Shown one piece after another: positions 24,613-47,055 of a stretch of 64,000 bases of DNA. This DNA is from an uncultured Endomicrobiia bacterium (GTDB taxonomy: Bacteria; Elusimicrobiota; Endomicrobiia; DTEH01). The stretch is taken from assembly GCA_937936785.1 (NCBI GenBank), contig CALDDQ010000006.1, positions 68,739 through 132,738 of the forward strand, given 5' to 3'. The notes below the pieces were generated by a model, which was not told the origin of the DNA, searched no databases, and saw nothing but the letters and a program-made list of their open reading frames with translations. Made by a program: the position numbers and the translations under genes. Numbering within the stretch: the first letter of the stretch is position 1; each line of letters begins with the position of its first letter.

Positions 24613-26607
24613 TTAATTAAACGAATAAATTCTTTCTGGTAACAATGTTTTCTCTACTAAAATTTTTTTCTTGATAAGTTTGGCTATTGATTCTTTAATA
24701 ACATTTTCCTCAGGATATAAGTATTTTAAAAGGTTAAATTTAAAATCTCGTCCTATAGCAGAAGCTATCTGCAAAACTTCTTTTGTTTTAATATCTAACT
24801 GATCTACTTGACACATTACTGCTACATAAATTTTTTGTGGGATATCAATCTTATTTATTTGTCCACTTATTGAAAACCCATCACCATTATTCAATATTGC
24901 TCTTGTTTCTATTAAATTGTTCACCAAAGCTTCTACAAACAATGGTACCCCTTCAGCGTTTTGTAGTATTATATCTTTGACATTTTTTAATATCATATTT
25001 TCTCCCAAAAGATTATCCAACAACTTGTTTGAACAACCAATTGTCATTTCAGGCAACATAATCTCTCTAAAATAATTTTTTTTGCTCCAAGGAATTTGTG
25101 TATCAGGCAATGATGTTGTTATAACCAACAACTGTTTTGTCTCACAAAGATCTACTATAGACTCGAACAACGTTAGCAAAGTTGCATTTGCATAATTTAA
25201 GTCTTCTAAAAAAATTATTAGTGGTTCATTCTTTAATATTTCTACCAGAACTTGTTTTATTCCTGTATTAACAAATTTATTTTCTTTAACATCATATACA
25301 ACAACCATTGATCCTTGTTGTCCATAAGGTAAACATCTAAATTCAAAATATCGTATTCCTAATTGTTGTACATATTTTGATAGTTCATACATCAATCTTG
25401 ATTTCCCAAAACCATACTGTCCTGTAATAGATACTGCATAACCATTGTGTGAATTTTCTACAGAAACATCTTTTATCCTATCTATAAAATTTTTAGTAAA
25501 ATTATATTCTCGTTCAGGAATAATGTATGGCGAAATTTTATTATTAACAGATATAAAATTATATCTCAAATATTTTGCTCCTTTTAATTCATATATGTTT
25601 AAAGCATCCTGTTTACCTTTCACATTTATCGATGGAAGTTTATAAAACACAAACTCGTTCTTAGAATATTTGTAAGTTTCTTCAGAAATAACAATCTGGT
25701 TTGGTAGAGCAATTGTTTGCAACCTTGATGCCACATTAACAGTATCTCCCATGACAGTATACTCACTTCTCGTTTCAGAACCCATTTCACCAGCAACAAC
25801 TTCACCAGTATTTATTCCAATACGAATTTGTAATTTTTGTGGTAATTCAGCATGTGTTTTATTAAACTCTTGTAATTTATATAACATCATTAATGCAGTT
25901 TTAAGTGCACGCTGCGGATCATCCTCGTGAGTTATTGGTATCCCAAAAAGTGCCATTATAGCATCTCCAATAAATTTGTCAATAACACCACCATACATAT
26001 TTATTGCTTCAACAAAACCTTTAAAACATTCGTTTACAACTTTTTTAACATCTTCAGGATCCATCTGTTCAGCCATAGAAGTAAATCCTGTCAAATCTGC
26101 AAATAAAACAGTAACAATTCGTCTTTCACCTTCGGAAAATTTTGGGCCATAAATTATTTTATCTAACATTTCTTTTGGCAAAAATTTTTGTAATTGAGCA
26201 ATTCGTGCTTCAATAATTTTTTCTTCTCTTTGAACACGGCGCAAAGCTACTTTTACTCTTGCAATTAATTCACTAGAGTTGAACGGTTTTGTAACATAAT
26301 CATCAGCTCCTGTCTCTAACCCTTTAATTTTATTATCACTAGAACCTAAACTGGTACACATTATTACTGGAATGTGCATTGTTGTAGAATCGTTTTTTAT
26401 AATTCTTAGCACGTCCACTCCTTCCATATCAGGTAACTGCCAATCAAGAACAACAAGATCTGGTTGAATCTCTTTTACTTTTTTTATTCCTGTTTCGCCA
26501 TCATCTGCAGATGAAACATCGTATCCTTCATCATTTAAAAGTTCCACAATTAATCTTTGAATATCTATCTCATCATCAATAACAAGTATTTTAAATTTTG
26601 TGCCCAT
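24613..26607 (-). CDS. receiver (REC) - class III adenylate/guanylate cyclase - STAND/AAA ATPase fusion protein
   Basis: REC: 'ILVIDDE...DLVVLDWQLPDMEG'. Cyclase: 'VTVLFADLTGFTSMAE' and 'GDTVNVASRL'. ATPase: P-loop 'GQYGFGKSRL' and 'AEGVPLFVEAL', typical of cyclase-associated ATPase domains. No C-terminal TPR/HTH domain. Confidence 0.8.
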   Translation of the reverse strand: MGTKFKILVIDDEIDIQRLIVELLNDEGYDVSSADDGETGIKKVKEIQPDLVVLDWQLPDMEGVDVLRIIKNDSTTMHIPVIMCTSLGSSDNKIKGLETGADDYVTKPFNSSELIARVKVALRRVQREEKIIEARIAQLQKFLPKEMLDKIIYGPKFSEGERRIVTVLFADLTGFTSMAEQMDPEDVKKVVNECFKGFVEAINMYGGVIDKFIGDAIMALFGIPITHEDDPQRALKTALMMLYKLQEFNKTHAELPQKLQIRIGINTGEVVAGEMGSETRSEYTVMGDTVNVASRLQTIALPNQIVISEETYKYSKNEFVFYKLPSINVKGKQDALNIYELKGAKYLRYNFISVNNKISPYIIPEREYNFTKNFIDRIKDVSVENSHNGYAVSITGQYGFGKSRLMYELSKYVQQLGIRYFEFRCLPYGQQGSMVVVYDVKENKFVNTGIKQVLVEILKNEPLIIFLEDLNYANATLLTLFESIVDLCETKQLLVITTSLPDTQIPWSKKNYFREIMLPEMTIGCSNKLLDNLLGENMILKNVKDIILQNAEGVPLFVEALVNNLIETRAILNNGDGFSISGQINKIDIPQKIYVAVMCQVDQLDIKTKEVLQIASAIGRDFKFNLLKYLYPEENVIKESIAKLIKKKILVEKTLLPERIYSFN

Positions 26608-26623
26608 ATTTTTTTTATCAATA

Positions 26624-27367
26624 TTAAACTAATTTTTTAATATTGTCCAACAACTCTTTTTCAGAAAGTGGTTTTGTAAAATATTCTGACGCACCGTATA
26701 ACAACGCTTTTTGTCTGTATCCTTTTAAATCATAACCAGTAATAACTATTATTGGTATATGTTGTGTAACCTTGTCACGTTTCAAAATTTTCATCACAGA
26801 AAAACCATCCATACCAGGCATATGTAAATCTAACAAAATCAAATCTGGCAATTTTTGTTTTGCATATGTTACACCATCTGGTCCATTATCTACTATTTCT
26901 ACCATATAATTTTCCGAACCTAAGTATTCTTTTATATAACCAGACGTATCCTTTTCATCATCAATAATTAATACATGTTTCTTTTTATCAGCAGTTTTTT
27001 CAAGACCATTCTCAACATTTTTTATACTTTTATACAACTCACCAAACTCTATCGGCTTTGACAAAAAATCCACTGCACCAAGATAATATCCCCTTTCTTT
27101 CTGAATACCTTCAACTATTGAAATAAATATAACTGGAATATTTTGTGTTTCAGGATCTTTTTTTAACATCTCTAAAACTTGAAACCCGTTCATCTGTGGC
27201 ATCATTATGTCTAAAGTTATTAAATCAGGTTTGAATTGTTTAACTTTTTTTGATGCTTCATCTCCACTATATGCAACTTCTACATCATATCCTTCAAATT
27301 CTAAGTTGATTTTTATCAAATTTGCAATTGAATGTTCGTCATCTACTACCAAAATTTTTTTTATCAT
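26624..27367 (-). CDS. tandem-receiver response regulator (REC-REC, no output domain)
   Basis: Two CheY-like domains, each with DD...D...K residues: 'ILVVDDEHS...LITLDIMMP' and 'VLIIDDEKD...LILLDLHMPGMDG'. Confidence 0.8.
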   Translation of the reverse strand: MIKKILVVDDEHSIANLIKINLEFEGYDVEVAYSGDEASKKVKQFKPDLITLDIMMPQMNGFQVLEMLKKDPETQNIPVIFISIVEGIQKERGYYLGAVDFLSKPIEFGELYKSIKNVENGLEKTADKKKHVLIIDDEKDTSGYIKEYLGSENYMVEIVDNGPDGVTYAKQKLPDLILLDLHMPGMDGFSVMKILKRDKVTQHIPIIVITGYDLKGYRQKALLYGASEYFTKPLSEKELLDNIKKLV

Positions 27368-27390
27368 AAACTAAATTCTCCGTTAGTTTT

Positions 27391-29046
27391 TTATCTTTTA
27401 AAAAATTTTGTTAATGTATCGTATAATTGCATTATTTCTTCTTTTGAAACTTTTTTTATAAGATTGTTTATTTTACCTTTTTTTTCATTAAAAACTTGTT
27501 CGTTTACAAAAAGTTTCATCAATGGAACTTTTTCTATAATATGGTCCAACTTTAACAAAATATCTTTATTAACTTTGTTCTCCAATATTAAAATTATTGC
27601 CTTAGATTCTGGAGTTATTTTAATGTTTTTATTCGGAAATAACACTTCAATAACACTTTTTGAAACAAGTTTACTTGCTAAATATAATCCTTCATCTGTA
27701 ACATGTAAATTTTCGTCTGTACTAACAATTTTTTCTTTATCAGGTTGAATCTCATCATCTCTAATTTCTGTTTCTTTTATTTCTTGAACAAATTCTGTAT
27801 TTATCTGCTTTTGTTCTGCTTCTTTTTGTTCTTGTACTACATTTTCAATTTCTTTATCATGATGAGAAATATCTTCTACTAAATTTTCATTTTTAAGTTC
27901 TGGAACAATTTTTTCTTCTTGTATACTTAACTCTTCTATAATTACTTGTTGATTGCCAATATCTGTGTTTTTTTCAATTGTTGGGTAATCAACAGGTTTT
28001 TCTATCTTTTGTTCTTGTTTATCTAAACCTTGTGGTTCTGACGTTTTTTTTAAATTACTTTGTTCAATTGATTCACCTGTTATATTTTGCATTTTATCTT
28101 CATTTTTAGTATCCAAAAACATTGTAAAATCCGGAGGTAATAATGAAGTTTCAACACTTGAACTAATATTTTCTGTTTCTTTATTAGTTATAACTTCTTC
28201 TACTGAATTATCATCTAAAATATTTTTTTCTTGTATATTCTGTTCCACAATATCTTGTTGTTCTATAACAGACATCTTATCTTCATCTCTTTTTTCATAA
28301 AATATTTCGTTAGTTGTTTCAGATGGTTGATTATCATGAATTTTTGGAATAATTTCTTCCAACACAGATAATTCTTCTGGTATTACATTGAAATCATCAG
28401 TAACAACAACAGGTTCATTTTTTATTAAACTATTATCAATTACTGACTGTTCAGTATTTGCTACAAATTGTTCATTGTTTGAACTAACAAAAAAATTTTT
28501 TTCTGATTGAATTTGATCTTGACCTTTTGGTTCAGGGACAAAATTTTCTGTTTCTAATTCTACAACTTTATTCTCTTGGTCAGGTTTTGTTTTTTCAATA
28601 ACATCTTTAGATTCTTTAGAAATAGTTTCTGTATTTATAGATTCTTGCATACTTGATTGCTCTAAACCTTTTTTATTAATATCACCTAAAACTTTTTTTA
28701 CTACAGCAACAATTTTTTCTTCTTCATATGGTTTCTGAATAAAATCTTTTGCATCAAATTTTATTAGCATTTGCATTTCTTGATCAAATTTTCTACCGGT
28801 AACCATAACAACAGGAATATTTCTTGTTTCCTGTATACTTTTTAATTTTTGTAAAAGTTCATAACCAGTCAAAAAAGGCATATTGTTATCTGTAATAATC
28901 ATATCAGGTTTTTTTTCTTTTGCAACGACAACTGCTTCTTCTCCATCTGATGCTTCTAAAACTTCTATGTCATAAGGTTCTAAGTATATTTTTACAAGGT
29001 TTCTTAAATCTTCTTCATCTTCAGCAATTAAAACTTTTTTTGTCAT
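27391..29046 (-). CDS. response regulator with N-terminal REC, about 330-aa acidic low-complexity linker and an uncharacterised C-terminal domain
   Basis: REC: 'VLIAEDEEDL...DMIITDNNMP'. Then an E/Q/K/N/D-rich disordered segment. C-terminal about 110 aa of unknown fold. Confidence 0.65.
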   Translation of the reverse strand: MTKKVLIAEDEEDLRNLVKIYLEPYDIEVLEASDGEEAVVVAKEKKPDMIITDNNMPFLTGYELLQKLKSIQETRNIPVVMVTGRKFDQEMQMLIKFDAKDFIQKPYEEEKIVAVVKKVLGDINKKGLEQSSMQESINTETISKESKDVIEKTKPDQENKVVELETENFVPEPKGQDQIQSEKNFFVSSNNEQFVANTEQSVIDNSLIKNEPVVVTDDFNVIPEELSVLEEIIPKIHDNQPSETTNEIFYEKRDEDKMSVIEQQDIVEQNIQEKNILDDNSVEEVITNKETENISSSVETSLLPPDFTMFLDTKNEDKMQNITGESIEQSNLKKTSEPQGLDKQEQKIEKPVDYPTIEKNTDIGNQQVIIEELSIQEEKIVPELKNENLVEDISHHDKEIENVVQEQKEAEQKQINTEFVQEIKETEIRDDEIQPDKEKIVSTDENLHVTDEGLYLASKLVSKSVIEVLFPNKNIKITPESKAIILILENKVNKDILLKLDHIIEKVPLMKLFVNEQVFNEKKGKINNLIKKVSKEEIMQLYDTLTKFFKR

Positions 29047-29077
29047 TATTTTACCTCATAAACTTGATTTATTGTAT

Positions 29078-30517
29078 TTAAATTCTTACACCATCTTTTG
29101 GTACATACTGTTTAGGCAATGTAAACCAAAACGTAGTCCCAACATCAACTTCGCTTTCAACCCAAATTTTTCCTCCATGACCTTCTGTTAACCCTTTTGC
29201 AATTGACAAACCTAAACCAGTCCCTTTTGCACCTTTAACCTTTTTTCTGTGTTCAGAAACCTGTTCAAACTTGCTAAAAATTTTTCCTAAAGATTCCTTT
29301 GGTATTCCTATCCCTGTATCTGCAACACCTATTTGAACATACTCTCCTTTGTCAATATATTTTAATGTAATTTTTCCACCTTCAGGAGTAAATTTAAGTG
29401 CATTACTTAACAAATTTGTTATAATTTGTCCAACCCTATCTTTATCTATCATAAGTTTAGGTGCATCTGGTGGAACTTCGGAAATTAAAGTAATCTTTTT
29501 ATCTTCAGCAACAGATTTCATCAATGTCATAATTTCGTTTGCTGGTTCATACAAACTTACTAATTCAGGTTTTATTTCCATCATACCAGCTTCGATCTTT
29601 GCTAAATCTAAAATATCATTTATAAACCTGCCTAACCGACTTGTGTTATTACTAACTATTGTTAAAAACTCTTTTTGTCTTGGAGAAATTTCACCTGCTC
29701 TACCTTCTAACATTAAGTTAATATAACCTTTTATTGCAGTTAGTGGAGATCTTAGTTCATGTGTGACTGAAGACATAAAATCTTCTTTCATTCTGTCAAG
29801 TTCTTTTAATTTCTGTGCCATTAAATTAAAATCTTTTGCTAATTCGCCAAGTTCATCTTTACTTTTTACATTAATTACAGTATCTAACTTTCCTTCACCA
29901 ATTTTGGCTGCTCCCTGAGCTAGTTTTTTTATTGGATTTGTCATTGTCTGAGCTAAAATAAATGAACCCACTAATCCTAATATCAAAGCTATTGCTGCAA
30001 CAATCAAAATCCTGTCTCTAGTTTTGTTTAACGCAACTAAAACATCCTTGTCAATAACTTCCTGCAAAAGACCTAATCGCACATACCCTACTATATTATT
30101 TTGAATTCTTACTGGCACAGAAATGTCTAAAACTTTTTTATTTTGATTTTCCCAAGAATTTATTGCAACAGAATTTGTATTATAAATTTTATTCCAAACT
30201 TCATCATTAATTTCAACACCCATCTGTTCAAAATTTGTATGAGCATAAACTATTCCAAGAGATGAAATAAACATTGCATACGAAATCTCAGGTTTTTTTT
30301 TGATCAATTTAATATAATTTAATAGCACTAACTCGTCTGAAATAATTATTGATTCTTTCGCAATCTCAGACAACGATTCTGCATCACGAATGCGAGACTC
30401 TTGTTTTTCTTTTATTAATGTTTGTCGTTCAAAAATAAATAACACTACCGCTACTAAAAGTATTACTGTTATAACAAGAGAAACTGCAGTTAGACCAAGT
30501 TTTGTCCTTAATTTCAT
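29078..30517 (-). CDS. sensor histidine kinase (TM - HAMP - HisKA - HATPase_c)
   Basis: H-box 'SSVTHELRSPLTAI', N-box and G-boxes 'GTGLGLSI', and two N-terminal TM segments flanking a periplasmic domain. Confidence 0.85.
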   Translation of the reverse strand: MKLRTKLGLTAVSLVITVILLVAVVLFIFERQTLIKEKQESRIRDAESLSEIAKESIIISDELVLLNYIKLIKKKPEISYAMFISSLGIVYAHTNFEQMGVEINDEVWNKIYNTNSVAINSWENQNKKVLDISVPVRIQNNIVGYVRLGLLQEVIDKDVLVALNKTRDRILIVAAIALILGLVGSFILAQTMTNPIKKLAQGAAKIGEGKLDTVINVKSKDELGELAKDFNLMAQKLKELDRMKEDFMSSVTHELRSPLTAIKGYINLMLEGRAGEISPRQKEFLTIVSNNTSRLGRFINDILDLAKIEAGMMEIKPELVSLYEPANEIMTLMKSVAEDKKITLISEVPPDAPKLMIDKDRVGQIITNLLSNALKFTPEGGKITLKYIDKGEYVQIGVADTGIGIPKESLGKIFSKFEQVSEHRKKVKGAKGTGLGLSIAKGLTEGHGGKIWVESEVDVGTTFWFTLPKQYVPKDGVRI

Positions 30518-30623
30518 TTTTTTACTTTAGATATAGAAATAGCCAAAGAATTGCTAATCAATTTATTTAAACTTATAATTTTTTTAAGAACAAATCAATA
30601 TATAAAAATTAACTTTTTAGACA

Positions 30624-32576: not shown

Positions 32577-32717
32577 TTATTTATTTCTCCTATTTAATAT
32601 CCTCACCATTTTTTTAACTTATCCTTTGACAAATAATCTATAAACTTTTTTTCACACTCTCTTTTCAATTAACTTTTGTATAAAGTAGGTATGGTCATCT
32701 ACTATTGGTTCTTTCAT

Positions 32718-39100: not shown

Positions 39101-42100
39101 TCATTAATTTCAACTTGAACTGTTATTTTTCCACTACCGTCAGTTGTTTGAGTTGGTAAAGAAATATAATTTACTGTAGGGGCTACATTTGAAACAAAAG
39201 CAAGAAATGTTGTTGTACTGAAATTTGTATCAATATAGTTACCATATTCATCTTTCACTGTTGGAGGTGTGGTAGTAATTTTTATTGTATAGGTACTTTG
39301 TTGCAAATGTTCCTCTTGAGTATAAATCCTAAATGTGTTCCCGCTTATATAAGTAATACTCGTTATGGTTAAAATAATTTCAGGTGAACTACTCATATAA
39401 ACAGAATAATATGTTGTGTTAGTAGAAACATTTATATTCATCATTTTATCAAAAGAAAAGTTTGCACTGTTTGTACTAACTGCATTTGAAACAGATAAAA
39501 GTTTTGGCGAAGTACCACTATAGTTTATAACAAAAGTCGTAATATCAACAGAATAAACATTTCTATAATTTGCAGAACGAACTTTGAAATACCAAAATCC
39601 ATCACTATCTGCTTGTTTAATAATTTCTGTCCCATCCCAAAATGTTGTTGGAATTGCATTAATATCTGTTCCCCAATAATAGTAATAATGACTTGCAATC
39701 GCTTTAACACTAAAAGTTGCTATCCGACCTTCGTAACCACATTTTGCACTTGACGCTGTACTAGAAACAAAAATGCCTGAATAAAAAATTTTAGGTTCTG
39801 TTGGCAACGTGCACGTTGAACCAAAAAATGTTAGCTCACTTTCTATAAACTCTTCATTTTGTGACTTTCCTATAAAATAATACGTCGTATTAGCATCTAA
39901 TTTTGTAAATAAATAATTGTTGCTATTTGTCCAATTAGAAGTTTCACTAAATATAGTAAAATTTATGTCAGTAGAAACCGATACAAAATATTTTGTATAT
40001 AACGGATTTTGATTGTTAGACCAATTTAATATTATAGTGTAAGTAGAGATGTTTGTAAAACTGTTAAAAATGGGAATATTGGCTAAAGTAAATCTTGCCG
40101 TAGTTTCAGAAATTAAACTTTCTACTAAATCATTATATGCTACAACATATCTATAATAAGATGTGTTTGGAACAAGATTTTTTTCATTATAATATGTTGT
40201 ATTAAAACTTATATCTGCCAATATTCCACCAGTTGAACTTTTTAGTTTATACCCTATTTCTGCTAAAGAATTATCTTTCCATGCCCATTGAATTGAACCT
40301 GTGGTAATATTTACTGCTATAAATCCAGTTGGCGGATTAAATAATGTCTTGGTATAAATTGCTGTTGAAAGTTCTGATTCCAGCGGTGAACTAAAATATC
40401 CAAAACCTATGTCACCTAAATCTGTTGCTATAAGTTTGAAATAATACGTCACACCTGCAATAAGGTTTGTAACTACGGTATTACTACTCGGATGAAAAAC
40501 TGTTTTTGTTGAAACAAAATTGTCAGTCTTGGATTCAAAATTATATGTTGCATAATAAATGTTATATTTACTTCTATCATCAAAATATTCTGGTGGGTGA
40601 GGATTTGTCCATTCCAAAAATATATCTGTTTCACCAAGTGTAAACGCAGTAAGGTTTGTTGGGACAGATAATGGTAAATCTGCAGCAAATGTTGACACAG
40701 TATCTGACCATACGGACCAGTTTGGTCTTTCATCTGAAGCACGAATTTTAATATAAAAAGTTGTTCCTGGAAATAATCCTGTTAACGAAAAAGTTTGTTT
40801 CTCTGCTTGAATATATGAAGTAGTTAATATCACAAAATCAGATGGGATAAAATCTGTGCTTGTTGAATACTGTATCTGCCACCTTCCAAAAGAAACATTC
40901 CCTGTATAATTATTATCTCCTGGAGCAGTCCAGATAAGAATTATTTCGCTATCAACATTTCCTGTGTTTGCACTAAATCCGGTAATTTTTCCTGGCGGGA
41001 TATAATCATCTCGCGAGCACGTCGAAATTATAACACTAAATTCGGCCCAATTCGGAACTTCGTCTGCCATACGAACTTTTATGTAATATGAAGTATTATT
41101 AATCAATCCAGTTAAAACTATACTTTGAGAAGAATGTAGTATTGTATCCGTAGAACGAATTATCTTGTCGTATATAGAAAAACTACCATCAGTAGAAAAC
41201 TGTATTTCATATTTTCCTCCAACAATATTTCCATAATAATTATCATCACCAGGAGCAATCCAACTAAAAATTATTTCGCCTTCATTTGCTCCAGTTAATG
41301 CAGATAGATGATTTACTATACCTGGCGATTGGTTTGGACAAATCTGTTGCACTATTGACCAACTTGAAGTTCTAAGACCAGAATCAATTGTTTTCACCCA
41401 CCAATAATATGTTGTATTTTCTATTATATTTTTTAATATATGATTTTTCTCACTTCCAGTTCTTACAAAATTTCCCATTAATGGACTACCAAATGAACCA
41501 GAAACAATTATTGAATCTGTTGGCAATATACTTGTGGTAATATGTATGTTATAATATAACCCTGAAATTCCTGTTTCCGTATCAGAAAATCCACTAAATC
41601 TTAAATTTAGTTTTCCGCTATCAAACCATGACAAAAACAATGTTGGAACCGTTGGAGAAAAGTTAGAATTAGAAAATTCTGCTTCTAAAGATTTATAAAC
41701 ATAGTTTTTTTGGCCATAATTACCAAATACAATATCTAAATCTCCATCATTGTCTACATCACCCCATTCTGAAGTTCGTGTAGATTCTAATTTAACAGAT
41801 TCCCAAGATAAATTAAAATTGTTAAAAAAATTATTATATCTATATATTCTATTTTTACCATCGTTAGATATTAATTGATCCAAATATCCATCATTATCAT
41901 AATCTCCCCAAGAAACTTTATATGTGTTATCCACATCTAAAGATTCCCAAAAAAAATAAAAATCTGTTCCATTATTATTTTTGTATACCTGATTTTTTCC
42001 TAAATTGCCAACTAAAATGTCTAAATAACCGTCATTATCGTAGTCTCCCCACGCTACACTACTTGGGTCTGTACTAATTCCAATTAAAGATTTTTCTTGA

Positions 42101-45100
42101 CTAAAAGTTCTATCACCATTATTCTTATAAACTGATACAATACCAATATTGTTAGAACTTATTCCTACAATTACAAAATCTAAATAACTATCATTGTTAT
42201 AATCTCCCCATGATACTCCTTTTGTATAGTATGAGATCGGATTAAAACTATTCTCTAATTCAAATGTTCCATTACCTTTATTGCGATATATTCTATTTTG
42301 TTGTGTGGAAAGACCAGATCTACCAACTAAAATGTCTATAAAACCATCATTATCATAATCTCCCAAACTTATACTTGTAGGAGTACCTATATCTACTGAC
42401 CAAATATTTATAAAATTTTCGTTTCCATTGTTACTATAGACTCTAAGATACCCTACATTTCCTTCTATAAAATCAAGGTTACCATCGTTGTTAATATCGC
42501 CCCACGAAACACATCTTGTATTTTCAGCTAATGTAGAAACCCAAACTAGTTCAAAGTTGTTATTTCCATTATTGCGATAAATTTTATTTTTTTCTCCAAA
42601 ACCATCTAATGTACCAAAATTTCCTTCTAAAATATCTAAATATCCATCATTGTTGTAATCACCAAGAACTATCTGTGACGTGTTTTCTGCGCCAGTAGAA
42701 CTCCAAACTTCAAAAAAACTTCCAGGAATAACACTACACGTTGTGCTACTTGACCAATTATCCACCTCATCTGCAACACGTATACTAAAATTATGAACAA
42801 CTCGTGGTTGTAATCCTGTCAAAATCAAAACTTGTTCTTGTCCTTGGGATGCAGAAAATGTTTGTGTTGAAAAATACCATTGAACCCAATTTGTAGTATA
42901 ACTAATTTCATACTTACCACCTACTATATCTCCAAAATAATTATTATCTCCCGGTGTTATCCAGGTCAACTTCACTTGTTCATCAGTTACTCCAACAAAA
43001 CTTGTTACAATACCAGGTGCTACAATATCTCTCTGTGCCCAAGTAGTTGCTGTATTAGAAATTTCTGACCACAATGGTACTTCATCCGCAAACCAAATTT
43101 TAATATAATAAGTTACTCCTATGGTTAGTCCAGAAATTGTATGATTAACAACTGACCCCGGAGGTGGTGCAATGTTAAATTTTTCAACATACTGTGCTGA
43201 GATAGTGGACCAATTTATCCCAACCCAAGTTGATACTTGTATTCTACCTTCTCCTTTGTCAAACTGTTTTCTATATCCGTTATCTCCAGGAAAACTCCAA
43301 CTCAACTTTATTTCTCCTTCAAAATTCCCTGGTTCTCCCATAAGGTCTGTAACCATACCAGGTGGTACTGTATCTATTGTAATAGCATAACCTAAATTTG
43401 ACATCTCAGACAAATTGTTTCTTTCATCAAAAGATTTTATTGCAAAATAATATGTCGTATCGCCAGACAAATCTTTTGCAAAACGAAATTCCTGACTTCC
43501 TGCAGATTTTGGTAAATCATCTGGAATAGTACTCAATGTTGATGCAGAATCAAATGGTATGATCTTAACTTGAGTTGTGTTATATTCACCAAGAATAGGT
43601 TCCGGTACAACTTTTTTTCTTACAAAAATATTGTCCACATACCATCCTTCATAAGTATTACTACTTTCATCTACTGTATCAAATGTAAATTTAAGTTTTA
43701 ATGTTCCTGAAAAACCTGATATACCAACCGTTTTCTTAGACCACAAATCTGCTCTATCAGTTTTACTCCATAAAAGAACCCAACCATATCCACTACTTAT
43801 ATATACAGCCATATTATCTTTGTCATCATCTGTGTTATTCCAACTCTGAAAATTTAATTCTAAGTCACAATTTTCATTAAAAACAAAGTTTGGTGTTTCA
43901 GCAGAACCATTATTTGCAGATGGATAAGAATCATAAGTGTCGTAAGATATGCCATTTTTATTCATACTATATTTCAAATGTGGTGTTGGAATATTATTCT
44001 CCCATCGTTGATAATTTTGATGAAATGATATCGTACTAAATCTTTGCTCAAATGTCCATCCTGTATCAAATGTTTCATCTCCAAATACAAATGTATTTTT
44101 TATGTTACTGGTAAACCATGCATTATAATTTCCAAAGTACATATAAATATAATTTTCGCCAGGATAAATTTTTGGAATCTTTACCCAAATGTTTGCTTGT
44201 AAATAATTTGTTTTATTTTCAATCCAGTAACTTAACTCTTTTCTTTCTACTGAATCATCTGTGAACCTCAAATCACTAAAATCATACTTCATTGTTGGTT
44301 CATACCATACTGTAAAATTTAAAGAATAATCTTCAATAGTAGTACTTGAATTTATTTTATACCTTCTTTCCCATTGCCAACTACCACCACCAGAATTTGA
44401 TAAATTTACAATAGCAACTGTAGCACATTTTATTATATAACTTGATACTGTTCCTTCATAATTGTCATCACCTGGAGATATCCAACTTAAATTTATAATC
44501 CCGGCAGTATCACTTGAAGTTGCAACTAAAGTTGTAATTTTACCTGGTAAAACTTCAGTTGCAGATCGCCATTGATAGTTAGAAATTCCACTCATATTAT
44601 TCCTTTCATCAACAACACGAATTGCAAAATTGTTCCATCCTTTAGGGACATTATTAAGAACCAATTCTTCGCTTGTTCCTGCTTGTTGTGGTGCAGGTAT
44701 TGTTGCATTAATTGGAGGCAAAGTAACACTATAAGCACTGTTCCATGATAATTCGTTATCAATTGAATTTATAGAAGAATACCGTATTAAATAACTTGAT
44801 GCTGTCCCTGTTGAATAATCATCTCCGACAGCAATCCAAGTTAATTTTATCTGTCCTTCAACAGAAGTTGAACTTACAACAAGTGTTGTTATTATTGAAG
44901 GAGGAATTTCTATTGGAGAAACACTTATTGTAGTACTTGAAATTGGGGACATGTTCCCATAATCGTCAATAGCACGAATCGCAAAATACCAGATACCTTT
45001 TGGAACATTGTTTATAATAACTTCTTGAGTTGTTCCTGCAACTAATGGAACTGGCGGATTTGTCAATGTTGGTGCTGTGGTTATATCTGTTGCTTTTGAC

Positions 45101-46209
45101 CATAAAGATTCTGTATGTATACCAAAAGATGCATATTTTATGGTATATAAAGTTGCTGTTCCAACATATAAATCATCGCCCGTAGCAACCCATTTTAGTT
45201 TTATTTCACCTTCATTTGAAGTAACCTTTATTGTCAAACCTGTAATTTTACCTGGAGAAATATTGTCCACTTGTGCCCATTGTGTAGTACCGTTAGAAAT
45301 TAAACTATAATTTTGTTCTTCATCGACACTCCATAAACGAAAATAATATGTCACCCCTCTATTTAATCCAGTAATTGTGTAATTAACTGTTGTTCCAGGA
45401 GTTACACCATAAGTTGAAATTGTTACTTGTGCATTCGCAGTTGACCAATATACAATATTAAATGTTGAATATTGAATCTTATAACTTGAACCTTCTTCTA
45501 AAGGATTGGTTATTCCATTATCTTCACCCGGAACTGACCAAATAAGTTTTATTTTACCTTCTGTTTCACCTACAACAGATCTTAAATCTGACACTTTTCC
45601 TGGAGGAACAGCATCCTTGACCTTTATACCCGGTGAATTTGAAATTTTTGACATATTGGAAGTTTCTTTATTAATAGCTCTTATCGCAAAAAATAATACT
45701 TTTTTTGGCAAACCAGAAACAATCCATTGTTCTTGACTACCATATGGTTTTGGTACTGGAACCGAAGAAATAGTTATTGAATTATTCCAAATTTGATCGT
45801 TTGTAATTTGTTCTGTGGAATATTTTATAATATATCTTTCAGCACTACCATCTGTTCCATCATTTCCTGGTGCAGTCCAAAAAAGTTTTATTTCACCATC
45901 GTTGTCACCAGTTTCTCCTGATAAATCTGTTATTTTAGAAGGTGTCGGCGCATAAAATCTAAACAAAATATCGGAACTTGTATGAACTTGCCAAAAACTA
46001 CCGGAATTTGTTGATATAACCATTACACCATTCGTTCCCCAAAAAGATTTTAAATTATACGGTGTGGTGGGAGTGGCTGCAGTAACAGAACTTTGATAAC
46101 AGTTTAATAAATCTCCTCCATTAGACCTAAAAAATATTCTATAAGTTTTGTCTGTATAAAGTGTTGCAGGAGTAATTGTTTTTTCTATCCATGAAAATGT
46201 TGTCGGCAC
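33145..46209 (-). CDS. giant T9SS cargo/adhesin-like protein body (FN3 repeats, DUF2341-like beta-sandwich, 7-blade FG-GAP propeller, C-terminal sorting domain); continues upstream past an in-frame TAA
   Basis: 4354-aa ORF. The N-terminus lacks a signal peptide and the frame is open back to 46395. Many about 90-aa FN3-like units ending in TxYYF[RK]-type motifs. A 'DFSDLRFTDD' beta-sandwich lies at about 44255-44290. A T9SS CTD lies at about 33145-33390. Confidence 0.8.
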   Translation of the reverse strand: MPTTFSWIEKTITPATLYTDKTYRIFFRSNGGDLLNCYQSSVTAATPTTPYNLKSFWGTNGVMVISTNSGSFWQVHTSSDILFRFYAPTPSKITDLSGETGDNDGEIKLFWTAPGNDGTDGSAERYIIKYSTEQITNDQIWNNSITISSVPVPKPYGSQEQWIVSGLPKKVLFFAIRAINKETSNMSKISNSPGIKVKDAVPPGKVSDLRSVVGETEGKIKLIWSVPGEDNGITNPLEEGSSYKIQYSTFNIVYWSTANAQVTISTYGVTPGTTVNYTITGLNRGVTYYFRLWSVDEEQNYSLISNGTTQWAQVDNISPGKITGLTIKVTSNEGEIKLKWVATGDDLYVGTATLYTIKYASFGIHTESLWSKATDITTAPTLTNPPVPLVAGTTQEVIINNVPKGIWYFAIRAIDDYGNMSPISSTTISVSPIEIPPSIITTLVVSSTSVEGQIKLTWIAVGDDYSTGTASSYLIRYSSINSIDNELSWNSAYSVTLPPINATIPAPQQAGTSEELVLNNVPKGWNNFAIRVVDERNNMSGISNYQWRSATEVLPGKITTLVATSSDTAGIINLSWISPGDDNYEGTVSSYIIKCATVAIVNLSNSGGGSWQWERRYKINSSTTIEDYSLNFTVWYEPTMKYDFSDLRFTDDSVERKELSYWIENKTNYLQANIWVKIPKIYPGENYIYMYFGNYNAWFTSNIKNTFVFGDETFDTGWTFEQRFSTISFHQNYQRWENNIPTPHLKYSMNKNGISYDTYDSYPSANNGSAETPNFVFNENCDLELNFQSWNNTDDDKDNMAVYISSGYGWVLLWSKTDRADLWSKKTVGISGFSGTLKLKFTFDTVDESSNTYEGWYVDNIFVRKKVVPEPILGEYNTTQVKIIPFDSASTLSTIPDDLPKSAGSQEFRFAKDLSGDTTYYFAIKSFDERNNLSEMSNLGYAITIDTVPPGMVTDLMGEPGNFEGEIKLSWSFPGDNGYRKQFDKGEGRIQVSTWVGINWSTISAQYVEKFNIAPPPGSVVNHTISGLTIGVTYYIKIWFADEVPLWSEISNTATTWAQRDIVAPGIVTSFVGVTDEQVKLTWITPGDNNYFGDIVGGKYEISYTTNWVQWYFSTQTFSASQGQEQVLILTGLQPRVVHNFSIRVADEVDNWSSSTTCSVIPGSFFEVWSSTGAENTSQIVLGDYNNDGYLDILEGNFGTLDGFGEKNKIYRNNGNNNFELVWVSTLAENTRCVSWGDINNDGNLDFIEGNVGYLRVYSNNGNENFINIWSVDIGTPTSISLGDYDNDGFIDILVGRSGLSTQQNRIYRNKGNGTFELENSFNPISYYTKGVSWGDYNNDSYLDFVIVGISSNNIGIVSVYKNNGDRTFSQEKSLIGISTDPSSVAWGDYDNDGYLDILVGNLGKNQVYKNNNGTDFYFFWESLDVDNTYKVSWGDYDNDGYLDQLISNDGKNRIYRYNNFFNNFNLSWESVKLESTRTSEWGDVDNDGDLDIVFGNYGQKNYVYKSLEAEFSNSNFSPTVPTLFLSWFDSGKLNLRFSGFSDTETGISGLYYNIHITTSILPTDSIIVSGSFGSPLMGNFVRTGSEKNHILKNIIENTTYYWWVKTIDSGLRTSSWSIVQQICPNQSPGIVNHLSALTGANEGEIIFSWIAPGDDNYYGNIVGGKYEIQFSTDGSFSIYDKIIRSTDTILHSSQSIVLTGLINNTSYYIKVRMADEVPNWAEFSVIISTCSRDDYIPPGKITGFSANTGNVDSEIILIWTAPGDNNYTGNVSFGRWQIQYSTSTDFIPSDFVILTTSYIQAEKQTFSLTGLFPGTTFYIKIRASDERPNWSVWSDTVSTFAADLPLSVPTNLTAFTLGETDIFLEWTNPHPPEYFDDRSKYNIYYATYNFESKTDNFVSTKTVFHPSSNTVVTNLIAGVTYYFKLIATDLGDIGFGYFSSPLESELSTAIYTKTLFNPPTGFIAVNITTGSIQWAWKDNSLAEIGYKLKSSTGGILADISFNTTYYNEKNLVPNTSYYRYVVAYNDLVESLISETTARFTLANIPIFNSFTNISTYTIILNWSNNQNPLYTKYFVSVSTDINFTIFSETSNWTNSNNYLFTKLDANTTYYFIGKSQNEEFIESELTFFGSTCTLPTEPKIFYSGIFVSSTASSAKCGYEGRIATFSVKAIASHYYYYWGTDINAIPTTFWDGTEIIKQADSDGFWYFKVRSANYRNVYSVDITTFVINYSGTSPKLLSVSNAVSTNSANFSFDKMMNINVSTNTTYYSVYMSSSPEIILTITSITYISGNTFRIYTQEEHLQQSTYTIKITTTPPTVKDEYGNYIDTNFSTTTFLAFVSNVAPTVNYISLPTQTTDGSGKITVQVEINDENSDKCKLMVSYTTTTDLSVWNKCVISTATASYYDSDGILSIDGLEYQIGESENKQILTNISNQENKITFLFDTLELDSNYYNTVHTSITLTDGNFILSVLSEQFVIDKIAPYNIGITSFSEVLISSINVFQSSVTEIGVGLWQWQVRKSTDGINWIDLIWVSSENPTFYVTELLYNTTYYFSQKFKDTKGNISLWGAIGTTVTLCIEPSTASFSNIFISSIQANWSNNGNPPNKTKYLCEISQDNFENIITSSQTYNLYAIFDNLLPNTTYYFKVKAINHKNVPTKEIYLGTKVTLCSNPVVEGYETITSSAIHSVWTSSLPQNPQGTKYFVQISTNINFLPILNSSTTTNLKAIFTNLFPNTTYYFRISAINYENVTTDFVLFNATSTLCNSPVSVENLFSELSTHTIKVSWSNNFNPIWTKYFIETSSTSNFNSIITSSLTINTNYIFNGLVSNTSYYFRIRAINNNNISTPETEPYYILGTTATLSNVPIIVLSSSITLNTITWNWTSGGSEKEFYSYIIEPSTNSGWIKMTSWTVYNLLPNTEYTLNLKSRNVFDIETNVVSTKTYTAIEPVTDSEIYFVGSSSIGIRILNNLTNITSGQSGVYFYVTSGSGEIKESFWQKSLEFFCTDLTENTSYSYKIKSRNADNVETNFTTEISTYTLIAVPTLSKINIIASSSTFLVVNLSTPPNQSLGQTGCEIVNINTGSSTILTGQYSWQENQLLENTSYYYKARYKNVNGVWCEYSELKYKYTLCNIPKNVSVIVLSTQSVQLSVDSFSNDTIGNSGYEWTCIYDSGGGNSSTQRIFIDDNLLPNSAYQYRIRYKNAEGEFSDFVNTTTIWTFANVPVVPTEPFLDISIDSITVSWWPNNNSLITKYYVECSTTGENFSSIFANSGWIAKTTWTILGLTGNTSYYFRVKARNESLVETTTIFLGVKITPSIPPKNLCKLTATPQSIIWGWEASSGENEFFAEVWTTTTTPYSKLKTSGWINTTYWSTNNELLHNTSYQLFVKARNFGGIETTTSSIVSYTAMKYPTEAVWDYVGTSSISLRLLDVLNNLNLGLSGISFLSMSQGGGSDSRGWSVDPAHTDTGLNENSHYRYIIKTRNVIGEEVSQTLDITTYTLISNPTNNKLWVDIDISSSAFLVIRTSEPLHNATLGQAGVMIECVTTGKIYITTGSYVITDTGLLENTSYEYRIKYKNVNGIWSEYNTTVLRKYTKTRVPQNFVMNTELVAGAIFMSVEKFRNDRSELSRYYFDCIEGAGGYSVDTSANATLIAGLPPNEKYTYSVRYTNGDGVFSSSVTMSRYTLANDPDIPIISTYSTTTFNLKISPNDNPQNTKFIIYVSTYSNFSSSVSVQTDGTLSLIPFWQTYSSWGGDVGTNVVGLIPNTAYYVRVKARNEDNIETKYSEIVTVVTHSLPPQNVSLETLSSNAIELKWAHPIGGVAGYKIERSTDTNYWVQLTSSCIDTSFIDTNLILDTTYFYRIASYNLNYLLSQATTVSTYAQDNFPPGKVKDLTAVKGTSIGQIKLTWTYPGDDGYVGSVVDGAVEIKYSSSMVSNANSAEFMIYFTTSFSPSVSASIILSDLLPKTTYKFWIRTKDDIGHWSEYSDAVQIVTKYVASVISHYPQNNDAGIANTIIPTIYYDDYIDTMTISNAVKIFEIKNNLNQQINQEVNYRVFSLDNLEIKLIPVEVLNKNYKYKVTISSGVKDIFGNTIDQKIDFVFTTIMDYEKENKFALEEDKTVVEIYPNTLSQDAYLIIGKDPQSNQVDVKPQKIEIANDKITKVEDKTSLVNTMREFVLYDENKNVIKRNFKNKIKITIPYKDDDQDGYIDNLSKKVKEKTLKIYYLDEEDNVWIRIPDSVVDIEENTVSVYVQHFSVYMIVGEEDYSLDDAYAYPVPYRPNTDSSHKKITFTNLSREAVIKIYTINGELIKTIKEPQDDGIEDYKTSWEDVNVGSDVYIYIIENKKNKKTGKLIVVR
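41700..42700 (-). repeat. seven tandem FG-GAP/VCBS-type repeats (WGDYDNDGYLDILVGN...) forming a predicted 7-blade beta-propeller inside the giant gene
   Basis: Seven copies of the G-D-[YVI]-[DN]-N-D-G-x-L-D motif at about 40-aa spacing. Matching DNA motifs TC[AG]TAATCTCCCCA recur on the plus strand. Confidence 0.7.
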
Positions 46210-46395
46210 ACTAGTAGAATTCGCTAATACACCTGAACTTACTATTGTACCACTACCTCCACCAGTTATATCTCTTAACTCATAATCTATTGAATTAGTA
46301 GGATTACCAACTTTTCTTACATAAAACCCAACTTTTGTAATTGTTGTTGTAAAATTAAATACAAATTGTTCTCCAATTGATACTCCTGCACCAAC

Positions 46396-47055
46396 TTACC
46401 ACTTACGAATATTCTCTACCTGTATTCTTACAATAGAATTCCCATGGTAAAATCCATCACTATATTTTATTAAAAAAATCGGCATATAATTTTTAACATT
46501 CCAACTATTAGAAGACCATTCTATATAATTTAAATTGTTGTCCTCAATTTGATTTTCTGGAATTAAATTTACTCTAGGTAAAGTGTATACTGTAGTAATA
46601 TAATTGCTATCCATACCATTATAATCTATAACTATATGATAAACTTTGTCTTTAACTAATGTTGTGCTTGAAATATTAATCGTTGCCCATGAGTTTGGGG
46701 AAAAAGAATTATAAAATGTGTAAGACAACCATATATTATTTGGTTTTCCATTACCATCATCTCCCATTATACCTATCTTATAATTTGGACTACCAATTAC
46801 ATTTGCAACAGGATACATAATTAGATCAATAACACCATCTTTTGGTGCTGTAAAACTAAATGATAAATATTTTAAATTTAATGAATTTATAGGAGGACTG
46901 ACTGGTTTAATTCCAGCTATACTTTGATTACCCACATACTCGCCAGCAAAAAGATTTGATAAGTTGAAAAGAATAAAAGAAAAAACAAATATTAAAAAAT
47001 AAATGTTAAAAATTTTATCATCCATCTTTTGATTAATAAAATTTTTGTTTATCAC
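46396..47055 (-). CDS. N-terminal signal-peptide-bearing segment of the giant adhesin gene (separated from the body by a single TAA at 46396-46398)
   Basis: 219 aa. 'IFNIYFLIFVFSFILFNLSNLFAG' signal peptide. Same reading frame as the 33145-46209 ORF. The 62 intervening codons have no stop and look protein-like (…DITGGGSGTIVSSGV…). Confidence 0.7.
   Translation of the reverse strand: MINKNFINQKMDDKIFNIYFLIFVFSFILFNLSNLFAGEYVGNQSIAGIKPVSPPINSLNLKYLSFSFTAPKDGVIDLIMYPVANVIGSPNYKIGIMGDDGNGKPNNIWLSYTFYNSFSPNSWATINISSTTLVKDKVYHIVIDYNGMDSNYITTVYTLPRVNLIPENQIEDNNLNYIEWSSNSWNVKNYMPIFLIKYSDGFYHGNSIVRIQVENIRKW

Follow-up and report, generated by a model that had tools for sequence, protein, structure and literature searches.

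The window analysed here is a 64,000-nucleotide stretch of DNA from an uncultured Endomicrobiia bacterium (Elusimicrobiota; contig CALDDQ010000006.1, nucleotides 68,739–132,738 of the forward strand). Domains were assigned from Pfam and NCBIfam, and L-numbers are the labels of the loci that were compared with it. A block at 24613–47055, on the minus strand throughout, contains in order the genes for a giant surface protein, a mini-protein consisting of a T9SS-type C-terminal domain (CTD), a beta-barrel with a TPR tail, a sensor histidine kinase (HK), a receiver protein with a long linker, a double-receiver (REC-REC) protein and a receiver-cyclase-P-loop protein, separated from the giant to the cyclase by 55, 141, 106, 31, 23 and 16 nt. 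A first-pass annotation had listed eight consecutive minus-strand genes; the strand and the genes described are correct, but one in-frame TAA splits the giant gene, and the eight ORFs amount to seven genes. The block is co-directional, as was also claimed, and is flanked by housekeeping genes; nearly all genes across some 55 kb (75–55195) are, however, on the minus strand, so the shared orientation is not above chance and carries no weight.

The giant gene opens with a 219-aa ORF (46396–47055) that specifies a predicted Sec-type signal peptide (MDDKIFNIYFLIFVFSFILFNLSNLFA), has no match in Pfam or NCBIfam and ends at the in-frame TAA (46396–46398). The main body (33145–46395) continues in the same reading frame and encodes 4,354 amino acids from its first start codon, a GTG at 46209, upstream of which the frame is open for 62 codons as far as the TAA. 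A product of 4,354 aa is likewise called on Logan contig ERR9287890_222439. At least nine fn3 domains are present, together with FG-GAP, DUF2341 and Big_5 domains. The size of about 4,600 aa first given for this protein applies only if the TAA, codon 220, is read through to give 4,636 codons; otherwise the gene consists of ORFs of 219 and 4,354 aa. The TAA separates the signal peptide from the CTD and may leave the cargo of this genome without function, which counts against our preferred reading of the block.

The giant's CTD (33154–33399) scores 25.6 bits against TIGR04183 (cut-off 23), and the 123-aa mini-protein (32718–33089), which is composed of a signal peptide and one CTD, scores 27.3 bits; the two CTDs are 40% identical. 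Against Pfam PF18962 (cut-off 27) they reach 17.9 and 18.1 bits, respectively, and both are best described as putative, borderline type A CTDs. This marginal fit, barely over one threshold and under the other, is a point against the main reading. The free CTD mini-protein is thus as first described, while the label of T9SS-sorted adhesin for the giant holds by TIGR04183 and not by PF18962. The signal peptides of the mini-protein and the 219-aa ORF were read as Sec-type from N-termini that are hydrophobic by inspection. The structure model of the mini-protein is of low confidence (pLDDT 60), and its top Foldseek matches include the T9SS substrate NucA (complex 8glk), PorZ and the RgpB CTD (E 0.01–0.03). 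In L001 and L002 the CTD is the best-conserved part of the giant, at 74–83% identity. The mini-protein is kept in L001, L002, L170 and L009, and as a CHU_C-type mini-protein in cassettes from sediment contigs.

The next gene (30624–32576) encodes a 650-aa protein, of which residues 51–347 (31536–32426) form an outer-membrane beta-barrel scoring 128.7 bits against the PorV/PorQ family model NF033709 (cut-off 90). Its best equivalog match in NCBIfam is PorQ (NF033711, 87.7 bits; cut-off 220), followed by PorV (NF033710, 49.6 bits; cut-off 250), and by these scores it is assigned to the PorV/PorQ family as a predicted member that is not an orthologue of either protein. The fold is FadL-like, with PorV as the best structural match. 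No match to TIGR03519 (PorP/SprF) was found at E ≤ 0.01, and the barrels of the sediment cassettes score 28.8–42.5 bits against that model (cut-off 90.55). The barrel runs on into a helical tail of about 290 residues (357–649; 30630–31508), predicted to be periplasmic, in which four long helices of 34–42 residues alternate with TPR hairpins. Its last 115 or so residues are 35–37% identical to the tails of distant cassettes. Profile search and fold therefore bear out the earlier description of a PorV/PorQ-like barrel fused to TPRs.

Could the barrel instead be a channel of FadL type that takes up some hydrophobic compound, with a kinase that senses the substrate and CTD proteins that are there incidentally? 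The barrel has a weak Toluene_X match, and its relatives carry UPF0164, which we take to be a Treponema family. Three FadL-like proteins of T. pallidum also have periplasmic helical TPR extensions (PMC8407342). PorV is nevertheless clearly the better match in a profile search with the barrel (E 9.6e-40, against 2.7e-5 for TodX), the mini-protein and the giant's CTD have been kept alongside it, and in the nearest barrel subfamily a CTD-bearing gene directly precedes 53 of the 79 barrels (67%), compared with 8% of background ORFs. We consider an uptake channel very improbable. The same count shows the earlier statement that PorV-type shuttles and their cargo are normally unlinked to be wrong; in Bacteroidota, too, type B cargo genes frequently have a porP/sprF shuttle gene linked to them (PMC12618676, PMC9143113).

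The sensor kinase (29078–30517, 479 aa) was correctly recognized: sCache_3_2, HAMP, HisKA and HATPase_c all exceed their Pfam cut-offs, and two transmembrane segments, located by inspection, bracket the periplasmic sCache_3_2 domain. Below it lie the proteins described as a REC protein with an acidic linker and a REC-REC protein, and both descriptions are accurate. The former (27391–29046, 551 aa) consists of a receiver, a linker of about 320 residues rich in Glu, Ile, Lys, Asn and Gln, and a C-terminal domain of about 110 residues that matched no family; its counterpart in L001 has 344 aa. The latter (26624–27367, 247 aa) is 59% identical to its counterpart in L172 and 72–77% in L170, and both of its receivers have their phospho-acceptor residues. 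Indeed, all four REC domains of the block retain the acidic pocket, the phospho-acceptor Asp, the Thr/Ser and the Lys.

The last protein (24613–26607, 664 aa) joins a receiver to a class III cyclase (PF00211, 123.6 bits) and a P-loop NTPase. The best solved relatives of the cyclase are Cya2 (2w01), its fusion construct 6fht and CyaB (3r5g). By aligning the protein with 2w01 and 6fht, and by the positions of motifs, we placed the metal-binding residues at D171 and D215, the specificity residues at K211 and T284, and the transition-state residues at N291 and R295. All six catalytic residues are present, and the Lys/Thr pair presumably denotes adenine specificity, which makes cAMP the likely product. 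That the output of the block is a cyclic nucleotide, as originally suggested, is plausible, since the catalytic residues are complete and cyclases are linked to barrel-TPR genes in L172 and L029. The NTPase has a Walker A motif (GQYGFGKS, residues 396–403) and an AAA_16 score of 23.7 bits, below the cut-off of 32.6; no solved homologue of this part was found, and no repeat domain follows it. The protein was first called a REC-cyclase-STAND ATPase, of which REC and cyclase are confirmed and STAND is not. Its counterparts are a full-length protein in L172 with 38% identity, whose AAA_16 match carries no mark of weakness in Pfam, and a protein of 691 aa in L001.

Relatives within Endomicrobiia also have the block. 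In L001 the order is complete (giant, mini-protein, barrel-TPR, HK, REC, REC-REC and REC-cyclase), the barrel is 54% identical, and the genes beyond the cyclase end differ from those of the window. In another MAG (L172) a 6,935-aa giant is accompanied by barrel-TPR (37%), Cache-HK (49%), REC-REC, REC and REC-cyclase-AAA_16 genes. Cargo, barrel-TPR and Cache-HK genes are followed by other signalling proteins in L010 and L173, and eleven sediment contigs contain cargo, CTD-mini, barrel-TPR, Cache-HK and REC genes, with barrels about 25% identical to that of the window. The barrel and HK genes of these cassettes often overlap by 4 nt, and their lone REC is nearest to that of the cyclase protein (1e-31, versus 1e-20 for the other receivers). 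In L170 the order is the same, all genes of the block are broken, an IS lies inside the barrel gene and the neighbouring genes are intact; this copy has decayed as a unit. Homologues are thus syntenic in other genomes, distant lineages included, as the first-pass annotation had asked to see, and this conserved synteny, unlike the co-directionality, exceeds chance. Judged by comparative sequence analysis, the genes evidently form one conserved module.

Two unrelated neighbouring operons, one for the adhesin and barrel and one for the kinase, receivers and cyclase, would also look co-directional in such a region; promoters could lie in the gaps of 106 and 141 nt on either side of the barrel gene, and promoter and terminator scans were uninformative as to operon structure. 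The order recurs, however, where the barrels are only 24–38% identical, the L170 genes decayed together beside intact neighbours, and an adjacent kinase goes specifically with barrels that have a TPR tail. This explanation is already disfavoured, and we give it very little credence.

Kinase adjacency deserves further attention. An HK lies directly downstream of 15 of the 32 TPR-tailed barrels and of one of the 87 tail-less ones (Fisher p = 2e-9), a value that is uncorrected for relatedness and not phylogenetically independent, with eleven of the loci in one clade at 67–90% identity. Clustering the TPR-tailed barrels at 50% identity gives 17 clusters, and those directly next to an HK form four groups with no more than 30% identity between them. 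Kinases built like that of the window come after the barrel-TPR genes of L001, L010, L172, L173, L093 and the sediment cassettes. Their identity to the window HK is 26–35% in the sensor, 56–64% in the TM-HAMP region and 42–54% in the catalytic part. No kinase was found near the TPR-tailed barrels of L009, L011, L012, L013 and L040, which is a point against the main reading. In L029 a Cache-HAMP-cyclase protein is encoded close to two barrel-TPR genes, perhaps a one-component version of the same logic.

From this arrangement we propose one conserved cell-envelope module, with a dedicated CTD-anchoring barrel, a periplasmic tail coupled to a kinase, and cAMP as the output; we hold it with even confidence. 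The giant fn3/FG-GAP protein and the mini-protein would be exported by Sec, each bearing a T9SS-type C-terminal beta-sandwich. Both CTDs would be bound at the outer membrane by the dedicated PorV/PorQ-type barrel, by analogy with PorV and its substrate CTDs, PorQ-PorZ and SprF-SprB. The long helical TPR tail that continues the C-terminus of the barrel into the periplasm would touch the periplasmic Cache domain of the adjacent HK, such that kinase activity is set by whether the barrel has the CTD of the giant or the mini-protein bound to it, or is under load. Signalling, we infer, would run inwards, with the receiver of the REC-cyclase taking up phosphate and cAMP synthesis changing in response, and the REC-linker and REC-REC proteins may act as branch points or phosphate sinks. 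The block suggests a link, undescribed so far, from the cell surface to cAMP signalling. The 64-kb window contains none of the T9SS core genes (SprA/Sov, PorK-N or PorU), and our literature searches found no report of T9SS in Elusimicrobiota; this counts against a reading in which a protein of 4,600 residues would have to pass the outer membrane. Of the earlier label of a dedicated secretion and surface-sensing module, the module is thus supported, and secretion and surface sensing are putative roles.

The information might instead flow in reverse. Cache domains usually bind small molecules and typically serve to sense them, so the barrel may not be a necessary input to the kinase; the latter could sense a small extracellular or periplasmic ligand, and the phosphorelay and cAMP could control how the adhesin is produced, exported or anchored, with the TPR tail as a docking or assembly scaffold for export and no transducer of signals. 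Conserved synteny fits this scheme as well as it fits inward signalling. An OmpR-type or NtrC-type regulator adjoins the block in some lineages (L001, L174), and for the T9SS of P. gingivalis the two-component pair PorX/PorY is listed as one of the transcription regulators (PMC9143113, PMC10947112). On the other hand, a cargo-regulating kinase would be expected beside tail-less barrel-cargo pairs too, where it is nearly absent; no DNA-binding output lies inside the window block; and the 4-nt overlap of barrel and kinase genes in many cassettes suggests coupled translation. We consider reverse flow unlikely, though a serious alternative to signalling from barrel to kinase.

Distant loci raise the matter of motility. 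In L003, L005, L048, L059, L081 and L153, and as variants in L041 and L054, a FliF_C/FliG_M/FliG_C protein, MotA and two MotB genes stand between barrel-TPR and HK, and REC-rich proteins follow, one ending in GGDEF. A single MAG contig (JBDRRS010000014.1) has both a motor-type cluster (L041) and a block of the window type with a cyclase (L172). The window block might accordingly be a remnant or motor-less variant of a surface-motility system, in which the TPR tail would connect the barrel and the adhesin held by it with a FliG/MotAB-type motor in the inner membrane, encoded elsewhere in the genome, under CheY-like control by the kinase and receivers. SprF of Flavobacterium has a periplasmic C-tail through which the barrel that holds SprB is coupled to the GldK track as it moves (PMC12635249). 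FliG, MotA and MotB homologues are, however, absent from the 64-kb window and from the L001 and L172 blocks, and blocks of the window type end in a cyclase, not a motor. We regard a motility function for the window block as improbable.

More broadly, and rather tentatively, the block may belong to a family of envelope-spanning devices new to description, built of T9SS-like parts outside Bacteroidota, in Elusimicrobiota and uncultured sediment lineages. In these a PorV/PorQ-like barrel would hold a CTD adhesin, a CTD-only paralogue would compete for or complement the site, and the periplasmic TPR rod fused to the barrel would convey mechanical or occupancy signals to partners in the inner membrane, which in Endomicrobiia would be a Cache kinase leading to cAMP and in other lineages a non-flagellar FliG/MotAB motor with c-di-GMP output.

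Among the closest known systems are the PorV-substrate and PorQ-PorZ pairs of the Bacteroidota T9SS. The window barrel passes the family model shared by PorV and PorQ and resembles PorV most in structure, its partner proteins carry a putative CTD beta-sandwich, and the mini-protein of the relative L009 has its best match at the CTD end of the PorZ model. PorZ itself is anchored by PorQ at the surface of the cell, with its CTD uncleaved (PMC10947112). Unlike PorV and PorQ, the window barrel falls under both equivalog cut-offs, has a 290-residue periplasmic TPR tail and is encoded next to presumed cargo and a kinase; the host belongs to Elusimicrobiota, where no T9SS core is known, and the mini-protein is a CTD without the body of PorZ.

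In SprB-SprF and the type B cargo/PorP-SprF pairs of F. johnsoniae and P. gingivalis, as here, the gene for a giant adhesin adjoins that of its own barrel (PMC12618676, PMC9143113). SprF also has a periplasmic C-terminal tail that joins the inner machinery, its twin cysteines bonding to GldK (PMC12635249), and the distant cassettes have CHU_C (type B-like) CTDs and barrels with some PorP/SprF similarity. The window barrel is instead of the PorV/PorQ type and the CTDs of the block pass TIGR04183, a type A model; where SprF has a short Cys tail the window barrel has a long TPR solenoid, and its partners are an HK and a cyclase rather than a gliding track. The FadL-like proteins of T. pallidum, compared by description only, likewise have a barrel of the FadL/PorV superfamily followed by a presumptively periplasmic alpha-helical TPR extension; no link to CTD cargo or a kinase is reported for them, uptake is their proposed role, and a similar C-terminal domain was reported in no other Pfam FadL member (PMC8407342).

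The cyclase protein resembles response regulator-controlled class III cyclases and cyclase-AAA_16 fusions, such as the cyclase-ATPase part of TIGR03903, in combining REC, Guanylate_cyc and a P-loop, and it aligns with positions 282–548 of that model. It differs from these in being short, with no TPR or HTH past the NTPase, and in sitting at the end of an adhesin-barrel-kinase block. Finally, in the TonB-dependent transducer/FecR, RcsF-IgaA-RcsC and NlpE-CpxA systems events at the surface are reported across the periplasm, by a component of the outer membrane, to a signalling protein of the inner membrane. The logic proposed here is the same and the parts are unrelated: the transducer would be a TPR tail on a PorV-type barrel, and the output a cyclic nucleotide.

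The genes of the block on the minus strand between 24613 and 47055 were confirmed as the open reading frames listed in the first-pass annotation, with corrections. The window has a G+C content of approximately 29%, and its nearest relatives are MAGs labelled Endomicrobia or Endomicrobiia, phylum Elusimicrobiota. The intergenic gaps within the block are 55, 141, 106, 31, 23 and 16 nt. Since the genes from 75 to 55195 are almost all on the minus strand and the flanking ones are housekeeping genes, co-directionality and short gaps are no evidence in themselves. On one side the flank comprises IspG, an IS200-type transposase, a sugar kinase, a nucleoside phosphorylase and Rho; on the other are an MFS transporter, a nitroreductase, NUDIX, TyrRS, the KdsD/Lpt genes, HPF, PtsN, HprK, RapZ and a mannose PTS. 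Scans of 24300-33400 for promoters and terminators gave the same counts as shuffled sequence, with no minus-strand terminator, and therefore say nothing about operon structure.

Several other features of the window were recorded. The minus-strand cluster at 12769-18478 contains lptC, lptA, lptB, hpf, a ptsN-like EIIA gene, hprK, rapZ and a CofD/YvcK-like gene; rpoN, which lies between lptB and hpf in many Proteobacteria, is absent from that position. The IS200/Y1-type transposase gene (48312-48797) lies two genes upstream of the block and adjoins IspG, and an integrase-core (rve_3) fragment occupies the window edge at 75-602. An OmpR-type response regulator without an adjacent kinase is encoded 7 kb upstream of the block (54500-55195), and near it, at 56952-57644, lies the gene of a 230-aa protein whose GGDEF domain is partial (profile positions 3-87 of 161).

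The gene for the giant surface protein, annotated at about 4,600 aa, is not a single intact ORF. Its frame, running from 47055 to 33145, comprises 4,637 codons including the terminal stop, and is split by an in-frame TAA at codon 220 (46396-46398, minus strand), the sole internal stop. The upstream ORF (219 aa) bears the signal peptide, while the downstream ORF (4,354 aa) has none of its own; the frame of the latter is open for 62 codons 5' of its first possible start, reaching the TAA. An identical 4,354-aa gene call in Logan contig ERR9287890_222439 indicates that the stop is probably present in this second assembly too. An exact look-up of the 219-aa ORF returned no record. We read the giant as a single gene with a nonsense codon, which could represent early decay or pseudogenisation, a polymorphism or an assembly error; the first of these would fit the wholly decayed copy of the block in locus L170 (see below). 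Repeat similarity across the TAA was weak in an internal repeat test (E 0.002 over 28 residues), and the domain just after it matched no Pfam family. Elsewhere the protein contains at least nine fn3 domains, together with FG-GAP, DUF2341 and Big_5.

The last ~80 residues of the giant score above the cut-off of TIGR04183, the model of the type A T9SS sorting domain (25.6 bits vs 23), and below that of Pfam PF18962 (17.9 bits vs 27). The 123-aa mini-protein consists of a signal peptide and one TIGR04183-type domain (27.3 bits), which is 40% identical to that of the giant over 92 residues. By curated cut-offs, these predicted C-terminal sorting domains (CTDs) are borderline. The giant CTD is 74–83% identical among the window and two related loci, L001 and L002; the L170 giant is ~70% identical to that of the window over the last 112 residues and 27–28% identical in the body. 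Only three sequences were available for a structure model of the mini-protein (pLDDT 60), and its Foldseek matches to T9SS CTDs were not significant. The mini-protein of another locus, L009 (L009:9452-9790), has its best match to the CTD end of the PorZ model.

Profile searches bore out the similarity of the 650-aa barrel protein to PorV/PorQ: it passes the family model NF033709 with 128.7 bits (cut-off 90). It falls below both the PorV and PorQ equivalogs, PorQ being the better (87.7 bits vs 220), and the profile of the barrel family matches PorV (E 9.6e-40) and TodX (2.7e-5). An AlphaFold model built from 36 sequences (mean pLDDT 86.4) predicts a short helical N-terminal segment, a beta-barrel at residues 94-347 and an all-helical region at 357-649, in which four long helices (34–42 residues) alternate with TPR hairpins. 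Both termini of PorV-type barrels are on the periplasmic side, and the TPR tail should therefore be periplasmic. An exhaustive phmmer search gave 190 representatives at E < 1e-30, dozens of which, 590–700 aa in length, align across barrel and tail, which makes the barrel-TPR fusion a sizeable family. C-terminal tails appear to be a recurring theme in PorV/PorQ-like barrels: L063:9959-11569 encodes one with an OmpA/MotB-like periplasmic extension, and five further loci (L017, L034, L036, L047 and L053) encode barrels with other, unassigned extensions, the whole proteins being 510–530 aa long.

The histidine kinase has the architecture TM, sCache_3_2, TM, HAMP, HisKA, HATPase_c. All four receivers of the block retain the acidic pocket, the phospho-acceptor Asp, the Thr/Ser and the Lys. 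In the 551-aa REC protein a Glu-rich linker is followed by a conserved domain of ~110 aa (27394-27726), which matches no Pfam family and resembles an L001 sequence weakly (E 2e-4). The cyclase domain of the last protein matches PF00211 with 123.6 bits, its closest solved relatives being Cya2 (2w01) and 6fht, a Cya2 fusion construct. Metal-binding D171 and D215 and transition-state N291 and R295 are present, with Lys211/Thr284 at the specificity positions; in the alignments the specificity site is Glu in 2w01 and Lys in the query and 6fht. Since a Lys at this position is the mark of ATP use, cAMP is the likely product. The C-terminal third of the protein had been called STAND, a label that is only loosely supported: the region, a P-loop NTPase, carries a Walker A motif, its AAA_16 match is under threshold, and it matched no PDB sequence and thus has no solved homologue there. 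In sum, the parts of the block are what their domain assignments indicate.

Homologues of these genes are syntenic elsewhere. Locus L001 (GCA_026416325.1), with a barrel 54% identical to that of the window, carries the giant (cut by the contig end), mini-protein, barrel-TPR, kinase, REC (344 aa), REC-REC and REC-cyclase-AAA_16 genes; the genes beyond are unrelated, so the block has the same boundary at the cyclase end. The short contig L002 holds giant, mini-protein and barrel-TPR. L172 (GCA_043825615.1) encodes a 6,935-aa giant, barrel-TPR (37% identical to the window protein), Cache kinase (49%), REC-REC (59%), REC and REC-cyclase-AAA_16 (38% over its full length), with no mini-protein in the block. 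Two further loci, L173 and L010, have a Big_5/CTD cargo, barrel-TPR and Cache kinase followed by REC-GAF-PAS kinases. In L029, from a groundwater Elusimicrobia MAG, the giant and barrel-TPR are followed by a 1,670-aa fn3 protein, an sCache_3_2-HAMP-cyclase, a second barrel-TPR and a FliG-like gene; this is a one-component form of the route from Cache sensor to cyclase. After the L009 barrel-TPR come genes for a TPR protein and for an RND efflux pump; a kinase therefore does not adjoin every barrel-TPR gene.

The only degraded copy that we found is L170 (JGI 3300066320, Ga0599197_11183, 1-17200), which preserves the entire block in order. A DDE transposase (IS; DDE_Tnp_IS240/rve) is inserted in the barrel gene at approximately residue 189, and frameshifts or stops break the genes for the giant, barrel-TPR, kinase, REC-REC and REC-cyclase. 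All of the block is thus broken and has decayed as one unit, while the housekeeping genes beside it, for a GlnRS-type synthetase, a nitroreductase and a radical-SAM protein, remain intact. This decay in one Endomicrobiia lineage, together with the nonsense codon in the window, suggests that the block is lost once surface contact ceases to matter.

Compact, more distantly related versions were found on 11 metagenome contigs from sediment, comprising a cargo of 635–770 aa, a CTD-only mini-protein of 143–216 aa, a barrel-TPR of 512–524 aa, a Cache kinase and one REC protein. Here the genes for barrel and kinase often overlap by 4 nt. Their barrels are ~25% identical to that of the window and 67–90% identical among themselves. 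The kinases share the architecture of the window kinase, with 26–28% identity in the sensor, 56–63% in TM-HAMP and 42–54% in the catalytic part, and the REC is nearest to the window cyclase receiver (E ~1e-31 vs 1e-20 for the other three). The L098 cargo, the only one run against Pfam, contains fn3 and a CTD of CHU_C type. Across loci, the CTD type follows the barrel type: CHU_C (type B-like) CTDs on cargo and mini-protein accompany barrels somewhat similar to PorP/SprF in these cassettes (L098:524-2967), and type A-like CTDs are paired with PorQ-like barrels in Elusimicrobiota.

Among all fetched loci that extend far enough to show the following gene, a kinase lies directly downstream of 15 of 32 TPR-tailed barrels vs 1 of 87 tail-less ones (Fisher p = 2e-9, not corrected for relatedness). 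The TPR-tailed barrels form 17 clusters at 50% identity, and the kinase-adjacent ones fall into four groups with mutual identity ≤30%. The kinase goes specifically with TPR-tailed barrels, and the parts of the block travel together across deep lineages. For this subfamily, the statement that such barrels are normally not linked to their cargo is wrong: 53 of 79 barrels (from Elusimicrobiota, Zixibacteria, FCPU426, Eisenbacteria, KSB1, Marinimicrobia, Ignavibacteria, Bacteroidota and others) come directly after a gene on the same strand whose product has a CTD-like domain at its end, against a background of 55 of 683 ORFs. The CTD model was iterated (HMM, 48 to 121 hits), and because of possible drift ten tails were run against Pfam. 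They matched FlgD_ig, Por_Secre_tail or CHU_C, so "CTD" in this count denotes a related set of Ig-like tails that is not strictly type A.

A different arrangement occurs in six distant loci (L003, L005, L048, L059, L081 and L153), with variants in L041 and L054. Here a CHU_C-type CTD cargo gene lies upstream of an 840-aa barrel-TPR, followed by a FliF_C/FliG_M/FliG_C protein, MotA, two MotB genes, a kinase and RECx3-GGDEF, RECx2 and RECx3 proteins. Such a cluster looks like a FliG/MotAB motor of non-flagellar type, connected with a CTD adhesin and with c-di-GMP as output; we found no description of such clusters in the literature, and they hint at the use of FliG/MotAB outside flagella. Contig JBDRRS010000014.1 (GCA_043825615.1) carries both the variant L041 (1-15 kb) and the window-type block L172 (132-154 kb; giant, barrel-TPR, kinase, REC proteins and cyclase), so the two versions can coexist in one genome. 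A motor reading of the window block itself is only a minor rival, since the 64-kb window contains no FliG, MotA or MotB homologues.

For the window we instead propose that the CTDs of the giant and mini-protein would be bound by the barrel, by analogy with PorV and its substrate CTDs, PorQ-PorZ and SprF-SprB. The periplasmic tail may touch the Cache domain of the kinase, placing the kinase under the control of the state of the barrel; phosphate would pass to the receiver of the cyclase and alter cAMP output, with the REC-linker and REC-REC proteins perhaps buffering or branching the signal. At the CTD site the mini-protein could act as a placeholder or as a competitor; alternatively, it could partner the giant CTD. 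The main rival keeps the module and reverses its logic, the kinase sensing a ligand and controlling the adhesin. That the kinase associates specifically with tailed barrels speaks for a physical link between barrel and kinase; we do not claim it as proof of direction. The first-pass interpretation as a secretion and surface-sensing module with a cyclic-nucleotide output is partly supported: comparative evidence gives good support to the existence of a module and to its cyclic-nucleotide end, and surface sensing is put forward as a hypothesis.

If our proposal is true, the pairing of cargo CTD and barrel known from the Bacteroidota T9SS would be a far wider principle of surface display, reaching phyla with no known T9SS; our literature search found nothing relevant on PorV or T9SS in Elusimicrobia, Endomicrobia or Elusimicrobiota. 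An outer-membrane barrel could have a direct connection, by way of the periplasmic TPR tail fused to it, with a two-component kinase and a second messenger, a simple and testable route for sensing the fate of a surface adhesin, and the CTD-only protein would be a ready tool to probe CTD recognition. This should interest those working on T9SS, envelope signalling and Elusimicrobiota.

In Bacteroidota, PorV handles all type A CTDs, and genes for type B cargo are often linked to their cognate porP/sprF (PMC12618676). Type B cargo is anchored by PorP-like proteins, SprB being thought to be anchored via SprF (PMC9143113), and PorQ holds PorZ, whose CTD is uncleaved, on the cell surface (PMC10947112). 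The periplasmic C-tail of SprF is joined through a disulfide to GldK in the moving track (PMC12635249). In Treponema pallidum, three FadL-like proteins have helical extensions that contain TPRs and have been placed in the periplasm, with no similar C-terminal domain in other Pfam FadL members according to that study (PMC8407342). The window system has in common with these the pairing of barrel and CTD and the notion that a periplasmic tail has a function; it differs from them in its barrel subfamily, its long TPR tail, its CTD-only paralogue, its fixed link to a Cache kinase and cyclase, and its host phylum.
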